Source of the DNA: a virus
Strand: one strand, 5' to 3'
DNA length: 15,833 nt
UHGV virus genome: UHGV-0249966
Both the position numbers and the translations under genes were made by a program. The notes beneath the pieces are model-generated. The model did no database searches. It was given only the letters and a program-made list of their open reading frames with translations, and was not told where the DNA came from. Within the stretch, counting starts at the first letter, position 1. Every line of letters begins with the position of its first letter. This document shows positions 95 through 9,813 of this stretch, piece after piece.

Positions 95-2542
95 TTAACC
101 GTCATGCATCATGCTGGCACGGGCGCGCGCACGTTTATCCCGCTCGTATTTTTCGAGCGCATCCTGTAACTGGCGGTCAAGCTGTGTCCCCGGCGCAGTA
201 CCGCCCGTCAGGTTGATGTGATATTCGTTTTTACTCTGGTCCACATAAGAGCGGCCAGCCGGTGCCGTGACCGGCTGATAAGCCTGATAGCCTGCATAAG
301 AGCTGGTCGCCGGAATATAACCACCGGTGCCATACGTGGCGGCATGAGTTCTGGCGGCGGTCTGGTCAAGTGTGTCTGACTCTTTGTTGATGACCCCGAG
401 CTTTTCCAGTACCCAGTCAATGCCGCTGCGTAATTTGTTGAACGCATTAAGCGGCAGCATCAGCGCGTCAGCCAGTGCCTGCCCGAACATGACGCCCGTG
501 TCACGGCAACGGTTCAGGGTGTCCTGGGTGGCTTTAACCGGGGCAATCAGGTTTTTAAACCACTGCCACGCGGCCTGTAACTTTTCACCCAGCCAGTCAA
601 ACACCGGTTTCAGTGGCGTGAACAGCTCCCCCACCGGCGCAAATGCCGCTTTCAGCCCTTCCACCACACCGCCAAAAAATGCGCTGACAGGCTCCCAGTA
701 TTTACGGATAAGTAACGCCCCGGCGACAATGGCGGCCACCACGGCCACAACCGGCCAGCTAATAGCCCCGATGGCGGTCATAACAGCACTGCCAACCGTC
801 GTGAAGACTGCCCCCATTGCGCCTGCTGCCGCGATGATGGCATTGATGCCGGTGATAACCGGCCAGGTTACAAGACCAATTGCACCGATGATGCCAGTCA
901 GCGCCAGCGCGCCACCGGCAATGATGCCGATGGTTGACGCCAGTGATTTGTTTTTCTGGATCCAGCCATCGAGTTTTAACACATACTTTGTGGCCGTCTG
1001 CGTGAGCTTACGCAGCGCGCCTTCCTGCTGGTCAAACAGGTCAGTCCCCACCGCCTCATAAGCGGACTGAAACTCTTTAAAGTCACCGCCTAGGTTGTCC
1101 TGCATGATATTTACCAGCTCGGCGGTCTTCCCGTCTGAGGCTTTAAACGCAGCGGTCAGTTTGTCCAGCTTTCCGGTTGAGGCGGCAGTCATCAGCACGG
1201 CGGCGGCTGAGCTGGCCTCCTCCCCGAAAATGGTTTTCATGTATTCAGCCTGCTGGGCAGTACCGAGCCGGTTTTTCTCAAAACTGGCCTGCATTTCTTT
1301 CAGAATGGTAAATACTGGTCGGGTATTCCCTTTACTGTCTGAGGTTTTCACGCCAAGCTCTTTCAGTGCATCCCATGCTTTTCCCGTCGGTGCCTGCAGG
1401 CGGCTTAACACGGCACGGCTTCCCGTCCCCGCCATTGAACCGGTAATTTTTGCATCATGCAGTGCCCCGACCATTGCGGCGGTTTCTTCAATGCTGACAC
1501 CGGCATTTTTTGCCACAGGTGCGGCATAGGTCAGCGCATCGCTCATGCCATCAAAATCGGCGGCGGTTTTGTTCATCGTCATGGAGAGAACATCCCCGAT
1601 ATGAGCGACCTTATCGTTTGAAAGCTGAAAGGCGGATTTCATCCCCATCAGCAGGGCGGCGTTTTCTTCCATCGTGCGGCGGTTCGCCAGCGCCATATTC
1701 AGCGTGACCGGCGTTGCCGCCTGAATGGCATCAACATCCCCACCGGCTTTCGCAATGATAATCTGCGCACCGGCTGCATCATCTGCCGAGGCGGCGGTGT
1801 TGTCGCCGAGCTGGCGCGCCTGCTTGCGTAGTGCAGCCATTTCGGCGGAGTCTTTTGCCACACCGAGCACGGCCTGCAATTCTGAGTTTTTCTGCGCAAA
1901 CTCATAACCTGGCATCAGCAGCTTAACACCGGCCATCGTTCCCGCCGCCGCAATCCCCACACCGGCAGCGCCCACTGAGGCCATATTTCCGGCCAGTTCC
2001 TTTCCGGCCTGATAACGCTGTTTTACTGCGTTAAGTTTTGCCTGTTGCGCACTGACACGCGCCAGCGCGTCGCGCTGACGGTTAAGCTGTGCGGTGGTTT
2101 CACTGATACGTTTTTTCAGTCCCTGCTCATCATGTGCAAGATTGCGGGTATTAATTCCCACAGCGGCCAGCTCCCGCTGCTGGCGTTTAACGGAATCCGT
2201 CAGGCGGTTATATTTCGCCTGTAAGTCCTCCGCCGCACGCTTTGCGGATTCCAGCACTTTCGCCTGAGCACGGGTCGGACGTTCGGTATTTTTAAACTGT
2301 GTGGCAAGGGCTTCAGCTTCCTGCCGTGCCTTTTCAAGTGCATGACCAGTCACGGCGAGCTGTGCACTGGTCTTGCGGAATCCCTCAATACGGGATGCGT
2401 GACCGTTCAGCTCGCGCAGTGATTTTTGTGTTTCCCGGATATCCCCCGACAGCGACTTACTCGCTGTGCGGATGGATTTAAACGGGCGGGATGCCTGGTC
2501 AACAGCCCTGAGCAATACCTGTAATTTTACATTGTTACTCAT
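95..2542 (-). CDS. T: Tail tape measure protein gpT
   Basis: 815-aa ORF, same length as P2 gpT; long Ala/Gln-rich coiled-coil N-terminal half, hydrophobic Gly/Ala-rich central segment, position after E/E'. Start ATG overlaps the E' stop. Confidence 0.93.
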   Translation of the reverse strand: MSNNVKLQVLLRAVDQASRPFKSIRTASKSLSGDIRETQKSLRELNGHASRIEGFRKTSAQLAVTGHALEKARQEAEALATQFKNTERPTRAQAKVLESAKRAAEDLQAKYNRLTDSVKRQQRELAAVGINTRNLAHDEQGLKKRISETTAQLNRQRDALARVSAQQAKLNAVKQRYQAGKELAGNMASVGAAGVGIAAAGTMAGVKLLMPGYEFAQKNSELQAVLGVAKDSAEMAALRKQARQLGDNTAASADDAAGAQIIIAKAGGDVDAIQAATPVTLNMALANRRTMEENAALLMGMKSAFQLSNDKVAHIGDVLSMTMNKTAADFDGMSDALTYAAPVAKNAGVSIEETAAMVGALHDAKITGSMAGTGSRAVLSRLQAPTGKAWDALKELGVKTSDSKGNTRPVFTILKEMQASFEKNRLGTAQQAEYMKTIFGEEASSAAAVLMTAASTGKLDKLTAAFKASDGKTAELVNIMQDNLGGDFKEFQSAYEAVGTDLFDQQEGALRKLTQTATKYVLKLDGWIQKNKSLASTIGIIAGGALALTGIIGAIGLVTWPVITGINAIIAAAGAMGAVFTTVGSAVMTAIGAISWPVVAVVAAIVAGALLIRKYWEPVSAFFGGVVEGLKAAFAPVGELFTPLKPVFDWLGEKLQAAWQWFKNLIAPVKATQDTLNRCRDTGVMFGQALADALMLPLNAFNKLRSGIDWVLEKLGVINKESDTLDQTAARTHAATYGTGGYIPATSSYAGYQAYQPVTAPAGRSYVDQSKNEYHINLTGGTAPGTQLDRQLQDALEKYERDKRARARASMMHDG

Positions 2543-3018: not shown

Positions 3019-3537
3019 TTACAGGCCGATATTGCGGCGGTGTTGCTCCAGCCGGTCGACGCCGTTCACCTTCTCAATCATGTTGATGGTGTCGATTTCG
3101 ACCAGCTCCTTACCGTCCATCGTCAGCCGGAAATAGGTGCAGACCACGGAGATTTTCGACTCGGTGTCTTCTCCCTGTTTACCCTCGCCGGTGTCGATTT
3201 CTTTCTGACGTCCACGCATGACCACCTCGACGGCCACCGTTTCGCCGGTATCGTCGCGCTGGTAAGAGCCTGCAAAACGAATCGGCACAGCATCCACACC
3301 GGTTGCGGCGTAAAGCTCCCAGATAACCGAATCCGGGAAGCCCCCGAGCGACCACTCCATTGACAGCGCATCGTCATCAAGGCCGAGGTCTACCGGTGCG
3401 CTGCCGTTCATCCCCGCACCGCGATAGTTTTCGAGCTTACGGGTCAGTTTTGGCAGCGTGACGGACTTTGCAACGCCCTGATAGCTGTAGCCGTTCAGAA
3501 AGACGTTCATTAACTTGAGTTTGCGCGGCATTGCCAT
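3019..3537 (-). CDS. FII: Major tail tube protein gpFII
   Basis: 172-aa ORF directly after the sheath gene; size and order as in P2. Confidence 0.92.
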   Translation of the reverse strand: MAMPRKLKLMNVFLNGYSYQGVAKSVTLPKLTRKLENYRGAGMNGSAPVDLGLDDDALSMEWSLGGFPDSVIWELYAATGVDAVPIRFAGSYQRDDTGETVAVEVVMRGRQKEIDTGEGKQGEDTESKISVVCTYFRLTMDGKELVEIDTINMIEKVNGVDRLEQHRRNIGL

Positions 3538-3549
3538 CGGTCAGGCTCC

Positions 3550-4740
3550 TTAATTGCTGTTAACCGAAGTGACCAGATTTGCCAGGTATTTATCGGTAAT
3601 ACGCTGGCGCAGGGTCAGGTTTTCGAGAGGAGGCACCGGGGTATAGTCGTAGTCGATATACAGTTTTCCGGCCTTGAGGGTTTCCGCATCGTTGGATTCT
3701 TCGCTGAACCAGCAGGTCGCATCCACGATATAGCCGTTTGTTTTCAGCTCACGGAATTTGGCATTGATGCCGTCAACGATGTCGCGAATCAGCGTTGCGG
3801 TGATGGGCTTGTCCACCGCCCACATGTGCGCCTCAGCCATCGTGTCGGCCAGCACCTGCGCGGTGCGGGTGTAGTTTTCAAAGAGGAACAGCGGGTCATC
3901 AGAGCAGGTACGGTTACCCCAGAAGCGGAAACCGTCACGGCGAATCAGCGTTGTGACGCCTGACTCGTTAAGCAGGTCAGCATCGGTGCCGGACTCCTGC
4001 AAATCCCAGAATACAGAGGCGCTGATGCCGGTAACACCGTTCACCCCAACGTTGGACAGCGTTTTATGCCAGCCCTGCTCCTGGTCGATTTTAGCGCGCA
4101 GACCCAGCGCACGGGCGGTGGCATACGCGGTGGCGGTGGTACTGGTGACCGTATCCCATGCGAGGAAATCCGGCCAGATGACCATCAGCTCACGCTGGCT
4201 GAAATTCTGACGGTAGGCTTTCACCTCGGAAATGGTTTTACAGCCCCATGCGCTGATATACCCGAAAGCGCGCAGCTTCTGACAGACGGATGCCAGTGCA
4301 ACAGCCACCTCTTTGGTATCCAGTCCCGGCACACCGAGAATACGCGGTTTAACACCGGTTACCGACTCCGCCGCCAGCAGGGCTTTTAGTCCGGTGTACT
4401 GACCGTTTTCGTCGGTGGTGCCGATGATATTGGAAACGGTCTGCGCGAGTTTCGTTTCCTCGTCGTCGCCGGTGCCGTCTTCCACACGCACGACAACGGT
4501 GACCGGTTTTGACTGGTCAGCGATGGCCTGCAACGATGCCGCCAGCGTGCCTTTTTTACCGGCCTTTGCAATTGCGCTCTGCACATTGGTAATCAGCACC
4601 GGTTTATTGAGGGGGAAGGTTTCCGCATCCGCATCGCTGGCCGTGCAGACCATGCCGACAATGGCCGTGGATACGGTGGAAATGACACGGGTGCCGTCGT
4701 TAATCTCCAGCACCTGCACGCCGTGATGATAGTCTCTCAT
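3550..4740 (-). CDS. FI: Tail sheath protein gpFI
   Basis: 396-aa ORF (MRDYHHGVQVLEINDGTRVISTVSTAIVGMVCTASDADAETFPLNKPVLITNVQSAI...), same length as P2 gpFI and recognisably the contractile sheath N-terminus. Confidence 0.95.
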   Translation of the reverse strand: MRDYHHGVQVLEINDGTRVISTVSTAIVGMVCTASDADAETFPLNKPVLITNVQSAIAKAGKKGTLAASLQAIADQSKPVTVVVRVEDGTGDDEETKLAQTVSNIIGTTDENGQYTGLKALLAAESVTGVKPRILGVPGLDTKEVAVALASVCQKLRAFGYISAWGCKTISEVKAYRQNFSQRELMVIWPDFLAWDTVTSTTATAYATARALGLRAKIDQEQGWHKTLSNVGVNGVTGISASVFWDLQESGTDADLLNESGVTTLIRRDGFRFWGNRTCSDDPLFLFENYTRTAQVLADTMAEAHMWAVDKPITATLIRDIVDGINAKFRELKTNGYIVDATCWFSEESNDAETLKAGKLYIDYDYTPVPPLENLTLRQRITDKYLANLVTSVNSN

Positions 4741-4859: not shown

Positions 4860-4983
4860 AGCCTGCCATGATTTGCACTCACTCATTTTCCAACTGACAA
4901 TTTACATAGCCCAAACGCTATCAAATCTGACAGTCTGCTTTGAGCGAAATGCGGACATGCGGGAGCATGGTTTATGTATGAAA

Positions 4984-5820
4984 CTAATGATGATAAATAC
5001 CATCGTCTAAAGGGGGACCTTCAGCCGTAACCCCCGTGATACTACTTGGCGGTTCAAAGATGGCCCGACCAAATATTGCATCAAACTCTGCTTTTGTGAC
5101 TGATAAGTATTGCAAGATGAGCTCTAGCAGCTCTCTGTACGTATCACAATGCCATTCAATGTGAGGACATATTCGGGAGAGAACTCTGTTCTTAAAATCA
5201 TCCAGATTATTTGGGACTTCCAGCAAGTTACCAGTGTTTAATGCTTTCGACATAAACTTGTAATTGAGCATAGAGAGAACCACTACTGATACACCTTTCT
5301 CTTGCCTTAACTGATCGAACTTCTCTTGTGCTTGAAGGCTTAGCTTGGCGTATTCGCGATCTCGTTTAGAGTTGATTGGTTCGACGTACTGAAGCGGTTC
5401 GTCTGCAGCATCACCGATACGTGGACAAAAGTATCTATTCCACCAAGCCTCAAAATACCTTTTTTGGAACTCAAGGTATGTCATCCCAATAATATTGGTG
5501 TTTTGAGTGTACTGTTTAGCACCCTGCTGAAGCCCGTGCTTTGAAATAATAAATCCAATATTAGCCCCGGTTTCATGCATTACCGTGGTGAACGAATGGA
5601 CCACCGTCTGTGGTATAGAACTACCCCAGTTTTTGCATTCCACAATGTATCTGATTTTGTCCACGCTCCTAACATCTGTAGCAAGAACATCCACATTCAC
5701 CGAGCCACGCGGGGTTTCTAAATCGACCTCGACTTCTGCAAACAAGCCAACATTACGGAATATACGTTGGACCCCTGTCTGGAGGTCTTGCCAGTTTTCT
5801 GGTAGTGGGTCATCGATCAC
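4984..5820 (-). CDS. Accessory protein with N-terminal PD-(D/E)xK (Mrr/restriction-endonuclease-like) nuclease core and an unassigned C-terminal region; candidate defence nuclease
   Basis: 278-aa ORF. Motif ...VNVDVLATDV...IRYIVECKNW... (D44, E61-x-K63) fits the D...(D/E)xK pattern of the restriction endonuclease fold. Start is GTG at 5820 (in-frame TAG at 5839-5841 prevents extension), with AGGA 9 nt upstream. GC looks intermediate, lower than the phage genes. Not part of the canonical P2 late operon. Confidence 0.6.
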   Translation of the reverse strand: MIDDPLPENWQDLQTGVQRIFRNVGLFAEVEVDLETPRGSVNVDVLATDVRSVDKIRYIVECKNWGSSIPQTVVHSFTTVMHETGANIGFIISKHGLQQGAKQYTQNTNIIGMTYLEFQKRYFEAWWNRYFCPRIGDAADEPLQYVEPINSKRDREYAKLSLQAQEKFDQLRQEKGVSVVVLSMLNYKFMSKALNTGNLLEVPNNLDDFKNRVLSRICPHIEWHCDTYRELLELILQYLSVTKAEFDAIFGRAIFEPPSSITGVTAEGPPLDDGIYHH

Positions 5821-5940
5821 TTCTGCTTTTCCTATGCACTATCCGCATGCTTTTAAGACTACTTGAAGACACAAACGTCGTCATCCACTAAAAGGTTCAA
5901 ATTTGAGATAAAAGTTCGTTTCTGGTACGAAGCGGATCGT

Positions 5941-6104
5941 TTGAAGAACCGTGTGATCTGCTAAGAGCGAGGAGTGGACGTTCTCAAGGGATTGCTTACA
6001 TCGAGGATGTATGAATCAACGGGGTGCAGGTCACAATATATGCTATCACTTGGTTGTTGAAACGAATGCCAAAGCCTGTGACGAGCGAGGAGTAGACTTT
6101 GGCA
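5941..6104. repeat. Two copies of a 15-nt motif GAGCGAGGAGT(G/A)GAC, each within an imperfect hairpin, in the inter-ORF spacer
   Basis: Copy 1 at 5965-5979 (gagcgaggagtggac) lies in the loop of hairpin 5941-5987 (5-bp stem, one bulge, 3 more bp). Copy 2 at 6083-6097 (gagcgaggagtagac) lies in hairpin 6067-6104 (perfect 8-bp stem tgccaaag/ctttggca, last motif base in the stem). Both are preceded by TGTGA; direct orientation, 118 bp apart. Confidence 0.6.
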
Positions 6105-6114
6105 CAAAAAAAAT

Positions 6115-7068
6115 TTAAGTGTCCGATGACTTTGTTTCAGCCGCTTTATCCTCAACCAATACCCAATCTCCGGAGCTAACCTTTGTCATAAGACAAAATG
6201 GAAAGTTGTTAAAAAAATGTTCAATATCACTTGAGGGTATTTTCTCAATTTTATTTAAACAACCATCAGCTATTTGTAGGGAAATCATTTCTCTTGTAAT
6301 TTTCATAAATTGATCAACATCAGATAACAACCATGTTTCATGATGAGCACCAAACAATTTGTGCGGTATATCATCAAGAATAAGATTGTCTAAATCATGT
6401 GATTTATCTTTGTTTAGCTCAAGAAGTACAAAATCAAAAAAATCAAAAAGATATGAATAGAGAAGATGAGTATAAAAGGTAAAATAGTAATCAGCAAAAT
6501 TAATATTGTTATTGAATCTATTTGAATACATCATATGAGGTTGAATCAGATCGTTTAGATCAGAGTCATATGCTTGGAAACAAATCTTTGTTTTAATATT
6601 ATCATCGTTGACATAATAAGGATTTACTGTTATCCCTCCATGAACTATCTTATTTCTTATTTTATTAAAGTCCTTATACCATTTTAAATTCAAATCTGGA
6701 AATTCCTGTGCATATTGCTGGAAATGATTTTCAAGGTAATCATATTTGTTGCCATTTTTTTTAGTTGGAAAAATTAATTTATCAGCTATCTGATATGCAA
6801 TATCCCATATCGTGCTGATTTTATAATAGCAATACTCAATAGCACTAATGCTGACAATTGATGTTGCATCATGTTTTCTGATGAACTCAGCATCTTTTTG
6901 AATTTTATTAATGTAAGTAATCATATAAAACAGTTTCTTGAAATGAGTTTTTAAATTTTTTAAAAGAAACTGAAGTTTTATGTCTTCCAGTGTATCTTCT
7001 TCATACTTATTTAAGTACATAATAATTTTATAAAGTGGACTGCCAACTCTTTTTGCATGTACATCCAT
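6115..7068 (-). CDS. AT-rich accessory protein with R-x4-H (HEPN-like) motif; candidate abortive-infection / RNase-type defence protein occupying the P2 Z/fun position
   Basis: 317-aa ORF with strongly AT-rich codon usage, unlike the flanking phage genes. ATG at 7068 preceded by GGAG (GGAGTAAATA-ATG). Motif KIRNKIVHGG = R138-N-K-I-V-H143, encoded at 6640-6657, matches the HEPN R-x4-6-H signature (R-N-x3-H as in many Abi-type HEPN proteins). Assignment rests on the motif alone. Confidence 0.55.
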   Translation of the reverse strand: MDVHAKRVGSPLYKIIMYLNKYEEDTLEDIKLQFLLKNLKTHFKKLFYMITYINKIQKDAEFIRKHDATSIVSISAIEYCYYKISTIWDIAYQIADKLIFPTKKNGNKYDYLENHFQQYAQEFPDLNLKWYKDFNKIRNKIVHGGITVNPYYVNDDNIKTKICFQAYDSDLNDLIQPHMMYSNRFNNNINFADYYFTFYTHLLYSYLFDFFDFVLLELNKDKSHDLDNLILDDIPHKLFGAHHETWLLSDVDQFMKITREMISLQIADGCLNKIEKIPSSDIEHFFNNFPFCLMTKVSSGDWVLVEDKAAETKSSDT

Positions 7069-7108
7069 TATTTACTCCAATAAATTAATGCGAACATTTT
7101 AATTGAAA

Positions 7109-7137
7109 ATTTAATGCCAAAAACTTTAGTTAGTCAA
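7109..7137 (-). promoter_or_regulatory. Candidate sigma70-type promoter for the accessory cassette
   Basis: Minus strand TTGACT (7137-7132), 17-nt spacer, TTAAAT (7114-7109), about 40 nt upstream of the ATG at 7068, in an AT-rich 168-bp intergenic region after G. Confidence 0.35.
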
Positions 7138-7236
7138 TAATTTATTCAAACGTCCGCTACTGGCACAGAACGGACTGTCAGATTAGGCTTTACTCTGTGC
7201 CATAGATATGTAAGCTCACACCAGAGCTCATACAAC

Positions 7237-7764
7237 TTATTGCGGCATTTCCGGCCATTCAGGATTTGCAGGATCCACACGACTGACCAGAACACTATAG
7301 CGTTCCCATGCCTCCAGTCGACTACGCTCCTCATCTGTTGCCATATTCAGCCTGACCGCGCGCTCCAGCGGCAAAATCACGGATTCAGCTTCGGAAAGCA
7401 AAGCTGCCTTATGTAATTCCGCCAGTTGCTGCTGTTCGTCTGCCGTATAAATCCGCTTAATCACGGCACCATCCTTAAACATCCATTTACCAGAGTCATC
7501 AGCACGCCGGTTGGCAGTAATATCAGGAACCTCAACGACGCTAAAACCTTCAGGATTAAGCGTTGAAGCATCTCTGGTGATGGCGACAATAATATTATTT
7601 TCATCGTAAACAATCTTTATTGTGTCTTCCTGAAAATTACTTACTTCTTCATACCAGTTTTTTCCGTCTTCGGACCATAACCAGATAACATCAAAATTCT
7701 TTGTTAGCTGATATTGCTCTTTTGTTTTTGGATTACCTGACTTAATGTTCTTTAAATGCTGCAT
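7237..7764 (-). CDS. G: Tail fiber assembly chaperone gpG
   Basis: 175-aa ORF directly after the tail fiber gene, same length and position as P2 gpG. Confidence 0.88.
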
Positions 7765-7767
7765 AAT

Positions 7768-9813
7768 TTACACCTGCGCAACGTTATACCATGTGCCATT
7801 GATGTATTTTTGTATTGGTCTGAATACTGCCGGATCATCACCATCGACTTCACCGACAATACCAAGCCCGGTAATTACGTGCCCTGCTTTCTCATACATC
7901 ACGCCTTTCTGCATGGTCTGCACAACACGTGTACCAAGTCTGATATCTCTCACATAGCGGGAATCAAAGTTACCGTAATCCGAGGGATTAACACGCCCCG
8001 TAATATTTATGGTCTTATTACTTTGAATGCTTCCGGAAACAAAGCGCATAACATGGACGTTATTAGCATAAACATCCAGATTACCATCGCCATTTTGTTT
8101 AAATCCGGTGTCGTTATCACCAAGAACAATAGAGTTCCCACCCAACGCGTTATTCGTGCCAAGTGCCAGCCCGCCATCAATCCTGGCACCATTACCAACA
8201 GACACAACTCCTGTTCTTAAGTTGATGCCGAATGGCCTTAATGGCCCAATATCTCCATTTTCACCCTCATTTTCTCGTGTAGGAATGATATACAGGTTTT
8301 CTTCAGAACGGCGAAAAATAGCCCCAAAAGATGAATTAAATATCCTCAGTGCATTGACTGTAGATATTTTTACTTCACTGCTGAAAAGGGCTTTAACAAG
8401 AACATACAGAGCATCCCATTTAAGATTCATCAGGTCTTTTGTTGTGGTGCTCTGGCGACTTCTCCATTTGAAATATTCATTGCCGTTGTCACCTGTTTCA
8501 AACCACATATATGAATCAGTATCGCTGTCGGCATCATTTTTAAATCCAATCTTTGCCCAGTCAGTATTTCGAATCCAGGCAAGGATTGAGTCGTTTTCAA
8601 AAGTAAGCCCACCGGACAAGGTATCGCCATTCTTTTGCACCGCGTTCCTGGCCCTGTTTACCGTTTCCTGCAAACCGAGGTATTCGATAACGGCAGTAAC
8701 GGTCGCTTTAGCCAGAATATCCCGTCCGACTTTTGTCAGGGTTGCCAGGCTGGCAACATCATTCCCCGTAAAATACGGAAACCTGTCTGCCGCAGTAGCA
8801 AGCCCCGCCAGCGCCGTCAAAGTGGCATCTTTCGGTTGCTTACCCGCAAGCGCATTAGTCATGGTGGTAGCAAAATTCGGGTCATTGCCCAGCGCCGCCG
8901 CCAGCTCGTTCAGCGTATTCAGTGCGTCAGGCGACGAGTCTACAAGGGCGGCAATCGCGGCCATAACGAAAGCCGTGTTTGCGATCTGAGTATTATTCGT
9001 TCCCTGTCGCGCAGTTGGCGTCGTTGGCGTTCCGGTCAGTGCAGGGCTGTTTAATGGCGCTTTCTTGTTCGTTTCATCCATTACCGTCTTAACGGCTTTT
9101 GGTGTTGCGGCGAGCGTCTCAGACATGCTGTTGGTCGCACTACTTAGCTGGACAAGACCTTTTCGCGCTGTGGTAGCGTCCTGTGCGGTATATTTCCCGT
9201 TAGCAAGGTCATATGCGGCCTTAACCGCTTTCGGCGTTGCGGCCAGTGTTTCAGACGTGCTGTTGGTCGCATTGCTTAACTGAGTAAAACCTTTTGCGGT
9301 CAGCGAGGCGTCCGGGTGACGTCGTGACTGTTCATGCTCTGCAATTTTGTCATCAACGTAATCCTGCGTCGCCATCACCGTTGTGGTGTCAATGGTCAGC
9401 TCCACTGAGGCCACACTGCTGACGATGATGACCATGCGGCAGGTCTGCGAACGCCCTGAGCCTTCGGCAAGGGTAGGTTTATAACTTTCGGCCATGTTCG
9501 CCACGGCAATTAACGTTCCCGCATCATCGTACAGGCCAAGCTCTCGCATCCAGAAACCGCCCACCTCCGGCGGAATAACCAGCTCTGCGATAATATAATT
9601 ACTGTTTCGTTTGTCCTGGCTGATTTTGTTCAGCGCATGTCGCCAGACTTCGTGGATAAGCCCGGTCTGTCCGGCATCCGGGACAGGCAATTTACCACCG
9701 CCATCCCCGACGGCCATCGTGGTAATGTTGACCTTCCGCCCTCCCGGCGCGGTTGCCGCTGCCAGCTTTGCTGCACCGGCAGTGGTGATAACGGTTTTGA
9801 ATTTTGTGCTCAT
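7768..9813 (-). CDS. H: Tail fiber protein gpH
   Basis: 681-aa ORF after baseplate gene I; conserved N-terminus MSTKFKTVITTAGAAKLAAAT...; internal duplicated motif ...SETLAATPKAVK... typical of phage tail fibers; Gly/Asn-rich C-terminal receptor-binding region. Slightly longer than the ~669 aa I recall for P2 gpH. Confidence 0.92.
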   Translation of the reverse strand: MSTKFKTVITTAGAAKLAAATAPGGRKVNITTMAVGDGGGKLPVPDAGQTGLIHEVWRHALNKISQDKRNSNYIIAELVIPPEVGGFWMRELGLYDDAGTLIAVANMAESYKPTLAEGSGRSQTCRMVIIVSSVASVELTIDTTTVMATQDYVDDKIAEHEQSRRHPDASLTAKGFTQLSNATNSTSETLAATPKAVKAAYDLANGKYTAQDATTARKGLVQLSSATNSMSETLAATPKAVKTVMDETNKKAPLNSPALTGTPTTPTARQGTNNTQIANTAFVMAAIAALVDSSPDALNTLNELAAALGNDPNFATTMTNALAGKQPKDATLTALAGLATAADRFPYFTGNDVASLATLTKVGRDILAKATVTAVIEYLGLQETVNRARNAVQKNGDTLSGGLTFENDSILAWIRNTDWAKIGFKNDADSDTDSYMWFETGDNGNEYFKWRSRQSTTTKDLMNLKWDALYVLVKALFSSEVKISTVNALRIFNSSFGAIFRRSEENLYIIPTRENEGENGDIGPLRPFGINLRTGVVSVGNGARIDGGLALGTNNALGGNSIVLGDNDTGFKQNGDGNLDVYANNVHVMRFVSGSIQSNKTINITGRVNPSDYGNFDSRYVRDIRLGTRVVQTMQKGVMYEKAGHVITGLGIVGEVDGDDPAVFRPIQKYINGTWYNVAQV
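9089..9317. repeat. Imperfect tandem direct repeat (period 132 bp, about 95 nt conserved per copy) inside H, encoding a duplicated 44-aa tail-fiber repeat
   Basis: Copy A from 9089 (cttaacggcttttggtgttgcggcgagcgtctcagacatgctgttggtcgc...) and copy B from 9221 (cttaaccgctttcggcgttgcggccagtgtttcagacgtgctgttggtcgc...). Protein level: QLSNATNSTSETLAATPKAVKAAYD / QLSSATNSMSETLAATPKAVKTVMD. Confidence 0.8.

Follow-up and report, generated by a model that had tools for sequence, protein, structure and literature searches.

A mobile one-gene module at the Z/fun site of a P2-like prophage encodes a candidate stand-alone HEPN ribonuclease

The 15,833-nucleotide (nt) stretch of UHGV virus genome UHGV-0249966 analyzed here (the window) covers the late genes of a P2-like (Peduovirus) prophage of Escherichia coli, which read on the minus strand. 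At positions 6115-7068 of that strand it carries an open reading frame (ORF), here termed ORF317, that begins with ATG and encodes a protein of 317 residues. ORF317 occupies what in P2 is the Z/fun site, with G (7237-7764), a gene for tail-fiber assembly, on one side and FI (3550-4740), the sheath gene, on the other, and is the second of two cargo genes there; the other (4984-5820, minus strand) encodes a 278-residue Mrr_cat (PD-(D/E)xK) “restriction endonuclease.” An initial inspection of this DNA (the sequence-only reading) had singled out ORF317 as an AT-rich gene at the Z/fun position with the motif KIRNKIVHGG, and had omitted the Mrr_cat nuclease. The coordinates of ORF317 were confirmed, as were its low guanine-plus-cytosine (GC) content of 28.6% and the placement of the motif at residues 136-145, with R138 encoded by AGA at 6655-6657 and H143 by CAT at 6640-6642.

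A GGAG ribosome-binding site is present six nt ahead of the ATG (7075-7078, minus strand), in keeping with the strong site claimed initially, and a promoter-like TTGACT-18-TAAATT element (7108-7137, minus strand), recognized by consensus match only, lies within the DNA that travels with ORF317. Relatives of ORF317 have a GC content of 21-36% in every host, irrespective of the GC content of their flanks. Comparison of ORF317 with an 88%-identical copy from locus L017 gave a ratio of nonsynonymous to synonymous substitution rates (dN/dS) of 0.30; against more distant copies the synonymous sites were saturated, with proportions of synonymous (pS) and nonsynonymous (pN) differences of ∼0.78 and ∼0.2, respectively. 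The ORF317 family is under purifying selection. The copy in E. coli LD93-1 (RefSeq WP_032259603.1) is 99.9% identical to ORF317, differs by a single V3I substitution and is annotated as “hypothetical protein”; no paper was found in a literature search on this accession.

To place the motif in a family context, homologues were collected by a word-indexed search of 5.8 billion proteins, which returned 70 clusters at 37-99% identity, all of them unannotated. Extension with a more diverse profile brought the total to ∼95 clusters; the added members all lack Pfam annotation and hence do not connect ORF317 directly with any HEPN family that is annotated. An exhaustive hidden Markov model search of 1.84 billion representatives yielded just 50 proteins. 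Conservation was assessed in two alignments, one of 31 homologues (A1) and one to which the most distant members, at 15-30% identity, were added (A2). In A1, R138, H143, G144 and G145 are invariant, as is the block E78-Y-x3-K83-I-S-T-x2-D, which contains the acidic/basic pair E78...K83 in helix 2 (6820-6837, minus strand). In A2, which reaches down to 15% identity, invariance is confined to R138, H143 and F164, although G145 comes close. R138 and H143 of the candidate catalytic Rx4H motif R138-N-K-I-V-H143 (6640-6657, minus strand) are unchanged throughout the ∼95 homologue clusters. In HEPN domains the residue that follows the arginine is usually N, D or H, an acidic residue is conserved in helix 2, and inserts between helices 2 and 3 are common (Anantharaman et al. 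2013, PMC3710099). N139, conserved in at least 90% of sequences, supplies a polar residue at the first of these positions. The E78 position is mostly, though not always, E or D in A2, and its spacing to the basic residue is E-x4-K as against the E-x3-[KR] of the HEPN literature.

From the family alignment AlphaFold2 built a confident model, whose predicted local distance difference test value (pLDDT) is 88 and whose predicted template modeling score (pTM) is 0.88. The predicted HEPN-like core spans residues ∼28-220 (6409-6987, minus strand) and is a four-helix bundle made up of helix 1 (residues 30-57), helix 2 (71-98), helix 3 (129-142) and helix 4 (192-218), with an additional helix (108-119) inserted between helices 2 and 3. 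Helix 3 stops exactly at the motif, which therefore sits at its C-terminal end in the model, the place assigned to it in the HEPN definition of PMC3710099. Between the motif and helix 4 is a predicted β-hairpin insert (residues 147-167; 6568-6630, minus strand) with the signature C-F164-Q-A-Y, whose F164 is the residue that persists even in remote members. A small α/β domain follows at the C terminus (residues ∼225-300; 6169-6396, minus strand); it is variable or absent in remote members, which align only to profile position ∼220-260, and is a candidate sensor or oligomerization part. The model and alignment fit the four HEPN features set out in PMC3710099, although for the acidic residue in helix 2 the fit is incomplete, given its E-x4-K spacing and its replacement in some A2 members.

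Structural comparison of the model returned HEPN structures as seven of the top 10 matches and ∼26 of the top 60, a level of likeness to solved HEPN domains that accords with the fold anticipated in the sequence-only reading. These structures included HI0074, three HepT-type toxins, YutE, Csm6 (twice), MtlR/YggD, AF0298, LsoA, RnlA, sacsin, HepS, AbiA, an integron-cassette HEPN protein, Csx1-Crn2 and Las1L. Profile searches of the PDB sequences with A1 and A2 produced nothing relevant. The ORF317 protein itself had no significant match in Pfam, PADLOC, NCBIfam or PHROGs, its closest approach to a HEPN family in Pfam being a weak HEPN_Apea match (E = 0.18) over residues 106-150. When 29 diverse family members were scanned against Pfam, the recurring sub-threshold matches were to HEPN-clan families: HEPN_Cthe2314 (PF18730) in three members (P0084, P0107 with E = 3e-4 and P0104 with E = 1e-3), HEPN_Apea in four and HEPN_Swt1 in one. 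The same 29 members gave no PADLOC match, including to the ApeA, PD-T7-3, PD-T4-2 and Abi families, and none matched NCBIfam, although the weak NCBIfam scores include Csm6 and Cas13e. P0084 matched HEPN_Cthe2314 with 26.7 bits (E = 6.5e-6) against a gathering cut-off of 27.1, over residues 34-160 including the motif, and matched the ORF317 family profile with E = 8e-21. P0084 thereby provides a transitive link between ORF317 and the HEPN clan that falls just short of formal significance.

Some of the results weigh against this assignment. When the ORF317 protein was shuffled, R-x4-6-H arose in 44% of the shuffles and the stricter R-[NDH]-x3-H in 3.8%, such that the bare motif is unremarkable by chance and is weak evidence alone. 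The structural scores of p130Cas, catenin and designed proteins, all generic helical bundles, fall in the same range as those of the HEPN structures, and Foldseek, the comparison originally advised, found no significant match for the model in the PDB or BFVD. Given the similar scores of generic bundles and the outcome with Foldseek, the structural evidence is supportive but not conclusive. The motif nevertheless goes beyond chance because it is conserved across the homologues. Taken together, it is likely that the ORF317 domain is a genuine HEPN domain with R138 and H143 as its active site. It would then represent a separate, unannotated HEPN branch, closest to the Cthe_2314-like and ApeA-like HEPN families.

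With these two families (PF18730 and PF18739, respectively) ORF317 shares a helix 3 that ends in the R-[N]-x3-H motif, the predicted four-helix bundle and the insert between helices 2 and 3; its helix 2 also has an acidic residue, which is kept in most, though not all, members of A2. It differs from both in having no significant match to a HEPN model, in the predicted β-hairpin with invariant F-Q-x-Y ahead of helix 4 and in a C-terminal domain of ∼90 residues that has no detectable relatives. Three single-protein HEPN anticodon nucleases offer a further comparison: HepS (PMC13043305), DARNA/PD-T7-3 (10.64898/2026.02.22.705581) and ApeA (10.64898/2026.01.26.701840) are kept as inactive oligomers until a phage cue prompts them to cleave the anticodon loops of tRNAs. 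ORF317 belongs to none of these families. HepS, from the Gifsy-1 prophage of Salmonella, is a 218-residue autoinhibited tetramer triggered by the siphophage J tail tip (PMC13043305) and has no sequence similarity to the 317-residue ORF317 protein. DARNA carries a C-terminal domain of ∼300 residues consisting of helical repeats that bind single-stranded DNA, whereas the C-terminal part of ORF317 is ∼90 residues long and unrelated; membership of DARNA/PD-T7-3 or of PD-T4-2 was rejected, the PADLOC models being unmatched and the long helical domain absent. ApeA is likewise a single-gene HEPN defense that cuts tRNA, and its HEPN profile shows the weak similarity around the ORF317 motif noted above. 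Its HEPN domain is C-terminal and preceded by a β-rich N-terminal domain of ∼300 residues (Gao et al. 2020; 10.64898/2026.01.26.701840), whereas the HEPN-like part of ORF317 is N-terminal and no β-rich domain precedes it; the PADLOC ApeA model was also unmatched. A HepT/MNT pair was rejected because no nucleotidyltransferase neighbor occurs in the window or at 16 homologue loci. Kinship with Abi_2 (AbiD/AbiF), raised in the sequence-only reading, found no backing in a Pfam Abi_2 match, and no upstream tandem-repeat RNA antitoxin, as in a type III toxin-antitoxin system, was found.

A relationship to the P2 Fun(Z) protein, which had also been suggested, did not hold. The P2 ORF between G and FI (L015 1061-1960) encodes 299 residues and occupies the same slot as ORF317, and expression in the lysogen is anticipated for both; the best BLASTP comparison gave E = 4.1 and hhalign a probability of 0.2%. 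Thus, of the overall interpretation first put forward, the HEPN-like part is supported by the invariant motif, the predicted fold and the near-threshold Pfam match, and the Fun part is not. The alternative that had been offered alongside it, namely that ORF317 is a replacement moron, is the right one. Since the two proteins are unrelated, ORF317 gives no mechanistic lead for Fun and does not explain the block of T5 by P2 Fun. Fun itself remains without a domain assignment, given that the P2 Z/fun ORF matches no Pfam family. Another ORF at this site, ORF1 of P2-EC58 (L016 976-1674), also matched no Pfam family.

The boundaries of the cargo were established by comparison with P2 and with other elements. 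Homology to the P2 backbone ends at 4947-4949 and restarts at 7152-7160, and a 33-nt imperfect inverted repeat (arms 4924-4956 and 7152-7184) surrounds the whole cargo; GenBank records of other P2 Z-regions, AJ512683 among them, label these flanks as left and right inverted repeats. Within these limits ORF317 forms a mobile one-gene module (6083-7164) consisting of the gene with 96 base pairs (bp) upstream and 32 bp downstream. The module is 92% identical in nucleotide sequence to an island beside a ter operon in another genome (L017), where the Mrr_cat gene is absent. The GC content of ORF317, 28.6%, compares with 55.5% for the phage backbone. The Mrr_cat gene lies in a module of its own (4933-6033) that is 96% identical to a lambdoid prophage stretch of E. 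coli 210205630 (L003) in which ORF317 is absent. The Mrr_cat protein matches Pfam with E = 4e-11, shows a weak match to PADLOC PDC-S02 and has no methyltransferase partner; its family comprises at least 360 clusters, compared with ∼95 for ORF317. Given that each module occurs alone and that the family sizes differ, ORF317 and Mrr_cat are neighbors, not partners, and Mrr_cat is probably a separate single-gene defense candidate.

Short repeats with the core GAGCGAGGAGTRGAC edge both modules, in direct orientation at 4935-4959, 5958-5982 and 6076-6100 and inverted at 7152-7184. The copy at 6076-6100 (plus strand; core GAGCGAGGAGTAGAC) marks the downstream edge of the ORF317 module, and the inverted copy (minus strand), which doubles as the right arm of the 33-nt repeat, marks its upstream edge. 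The repeat core GAGCGAGGAGT(G/A)GAC is present at 5965-5979 and 6083-6097, with degenerate copies at ∼4942-4956 and, inverted, at 7152-7166. The breakpoints of homology to P2, to the lambdoid prophage and to the chromosomal island fall on or beside these repeats, and the left junction of P2 itself has a related copy (L015 943-957). The repeats may be recombination sites for cassette exchange.

The cassette is rare. The flanks of the site have matches in 825 complete E. coli genomes, of which eight carry the cassette, and homologues of ORF317 were found at five loci among 185,579 species representatives; the 99% cluster of ORF317 contains 116 member sequences. Different cargo occupies this site in other P2-like prophages of E. 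coli, namely genes for Shedu, SIR2, SMEK, a protein kinase, an S1 peptidase or a restriction endonuclease, and a 2026 survey describes two main defense hotspots in P2-like phages (PMC13586616). The homologues occur mostly in defense islands and also in prophages and conjugative elements. Their settings include a Vibrio island by a type I-F CRISPR system and another by SIR2/DUF87, the L017 island by PRTase-CE/OLD-TOPRIM, a Pseudomonas locus by SIR2 and a YobI-type ATPase, and a Methylobacter locus by AAA_21 and DUF4276. Further homologues adjoin a RelA/SpoT-domain gene in a Klebsiella conjugative element, a relaxase gene in Pantoea and IS110 in Dickeya, and one lies between the portal and terminase genes of an Aliarcobacter prophage. 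An all-against-all BLAST of the neighbors across 16 loci revealed no conserved partner gene. The gene upstream of a remote homologue at L022 was considered as a possible paralogue and shown by comparison not to be one.

At one locus (L020 4708-9026; JGI metagenome 3300062289) a 46%-identical homologue begins 27 nt past rtcB, an arrangement found on nine contigs. The order in this RNA-repair locus is rtcR-rsr(Ro60)-rtcB-X-SDR-rtcA, in which X is the homologue and the SDR (short-chain dehydrogenase) gene is oppositely oriented, both being situated between rtcB and rtcA. RtcB ligates 2',3'-cyclic-phosphate and 5'-OH ends. Ends of this type are the products of HEPN ribonucleases (RNases) (PMC3710099). 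The association of rtcB with the homologue is a single case and is suggestive.

A tract of eight adenines (A8; codons T102-N105; 6755-6762, minus strand) is a site of variation within ORF317. ORF317 is intact in the window and in three other copies, whereas the tract is A7 in five of eight complete E. coli genomes, where ORF317 is split ahead of the motif into ORFs of 125 and 192 residues. The five A7 genomes come from humans, cattle, chicken and yak; given this diversity of sources, A7 is an allele in circulation and not an artifact of assembly, and its existence indicates that loss of ORF317 is tolerated. Public data also contain many truncated forms, with 79 member sequences in P0138. The tract could reflect pseudogenization or a slippage switch, the latter role being speculation. 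The 192-residue downstream ORF of the A7 allele, corresponding to residues 126-317 of ORF317, is WP_139566663.1, which is listed in Table S10 of DefensePredictor as a “putative novel defense gene” with a mean log-odds of 7.96 relative to a strict cut-off of 4; its best HHblits match there is Csx1 (HEPN), with a probability of 59 and a coverage of 10% (PMC13092281). No sign of experimental testing of WP_139566663.1 was found.

The observations described above can be accommodated by a model in which ORF317 is a stand-alone HEPN abortive-infection RNase of a new family. We lean towards this explanation, its defense role included, and regard it as reasonably plausible. ORF317 is intact in the window and under purifying selection, its motif is invariant, its predicted fold is HEPN-like, and it moves as a single unit and occupies a site used by defense genes in other prophages. 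Its RNase activity, the substrate and trigger, control through a dimer or oligomer, and the defense phenotype are inferences. In this model ORF317 acts against phages as a complete unit of one gene, transferred horizontally and lodged in the hypervariable Z/fun cargo site. The N-terminal two-thirds of the protein would form a divergent HEPN domain in which R138 and H143 make up a metal-independent RNase site, completed, by analogy with other HEPN enzymes, by dimerization. In the lysogen the gene's own promoter would drive synthesis of the protein, which would be kept in an inactive state. When another phage infects, the protein would detect a cue, perhaps through the variable C-terminal domain or the β-hairpin, and would cut cellular RNA, most likely in tRNA anticodon loops, leaving 2',3'-cyclic-phosphate ends. 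Translation would then halt and the infection would abort, a mode of action resembling that of HepS, DARNA/PD-T7-3 and ApeA.

Alternative explanations were weighed against this model. A rather unlikely one is that ORF317 is a non-catalytic helical protein with a ligand-binding, regulatory, superinfection-exclusion or anti-defense role, in which the arginine and histidine serve binding or structure. Non-catalytic HEPN families typically lose Rx4-6H (PMC3710099), whereas here, F164 aside, it is the sole strictly invariant element; moreover, the contexts are mostly defense islands and the DefensePredictor score is defensive. It is also unlikely that ORF317 serves to stabilize the element, as the toxin (or growth-arrest effector) in an addiction or toxin-antitoxin pair whose antidote, an unrecognized small protein or RNA, is encoded within the ∼1.1-kilobase module. 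Many HEPN proteins are indeed toxins of such pairs, as in HepT/MNT and in AbiF with its RNA antitoxin, the homologue at L024 has a 54-residue ORF 4 nt upstream, and the frequency of the frameshift allele suggests a cost. Set against these points, the 16 contexts contain neither MNT nor any other conserved partner, no second conserved ORF is present in the module, and the vicinity of ORF317 contains no tandem repeat array and has no Rfam match that would suggest an RNA antitoxin or a riboswitch.

That ORF317 and Mrr_cat constitute one RNase-plus-DNase system requiring both genes is very unlikely. In each of the eight complete E. coli copies the two genes adjoin and share an orientation, and in Comamonas sp. 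a 474-residue protein with an N-terminal Mrr_cat domain is encoded directly upstream of the homologue (L026 4486-5910). The Comamonas protein is unrelated to the Mrr_cat protein of the window outside the domain, and the adjacency may be a coincidence of crowding in defense islands; in addition, each module is found alone (that of Mrr_cat in the lambdoid prophage and that of ORF317 in L017), the families are unequal in size, and a 294-bp spacer with boundary repeats divides the two genes. Finally, the prevalence of A7 and of truncated forms might be taken to mean that ORF317 no longer has a function in E. coli and is a passenger in decay. This is scarcely tenable in view of the intact copies, the 116 members of the 99% cluster and the strong purifying selection across the family.

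A more elaborate form of the HEPN RNase model would combine an undescribed HEPN branch tied to Rtc repair, a contingency switch at the A8 tract and cassette exchange at the GAGCGAGGAGTRGAC repeats. As a whole this combination is improbable. Given that one homologue seems to be co-transcribed with rtcB, the cell or phage might reverse or sense cuts that leave 2',3'-cyclic phosphates, in which case the arrest would be reversible and not suicidal. The module might also be swapped among P2-like phages, lambdoid phages and chromosomal islands by an integron-like cassette mechanism. If the HEPN abortive-infection RNase model is correct, a new and rare family joins the single-protein HEPN defense nucleases HepS, DARNA and ApeA, with a sensor part that differs from theirs and is small enough to dissect. 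The locus also records, at base-pair resolution, how the P2 Z/fun hotspot came to contain two unrelated one-gene candidate defense modules side by side, each junction being marked by short repeats.

In the lambdoid prophage that carries the lone Mrr_cat module, the adjoining region (L003 6053-11462) encodes a 487-residue SEC-C-motif protein, a 253-residue “HEPN domain-containing protein” and a 414-residue hypothetical protein. The 253-residue protein is unrelated to ORF317. This cluster, near the replication genes, looks like another small defense-type cargo cluster.

The remainder of the window follows the order of the P2 late genes. The tape measure gene (95-2542, minus strand) is separated by the E/E' genes from the tube gene FII (3019-3537), which is followed by FI; beyond the cargo and G come the fiber gene H (7768-9813) and the baseplate genes. 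The 3' part of H together with G (window ∼7400-8600) has a GC content of 39-46%, as compared with ∼55% for the backbone, which suggests that this stretch is mosaic and represents an exchanged host-range segment.
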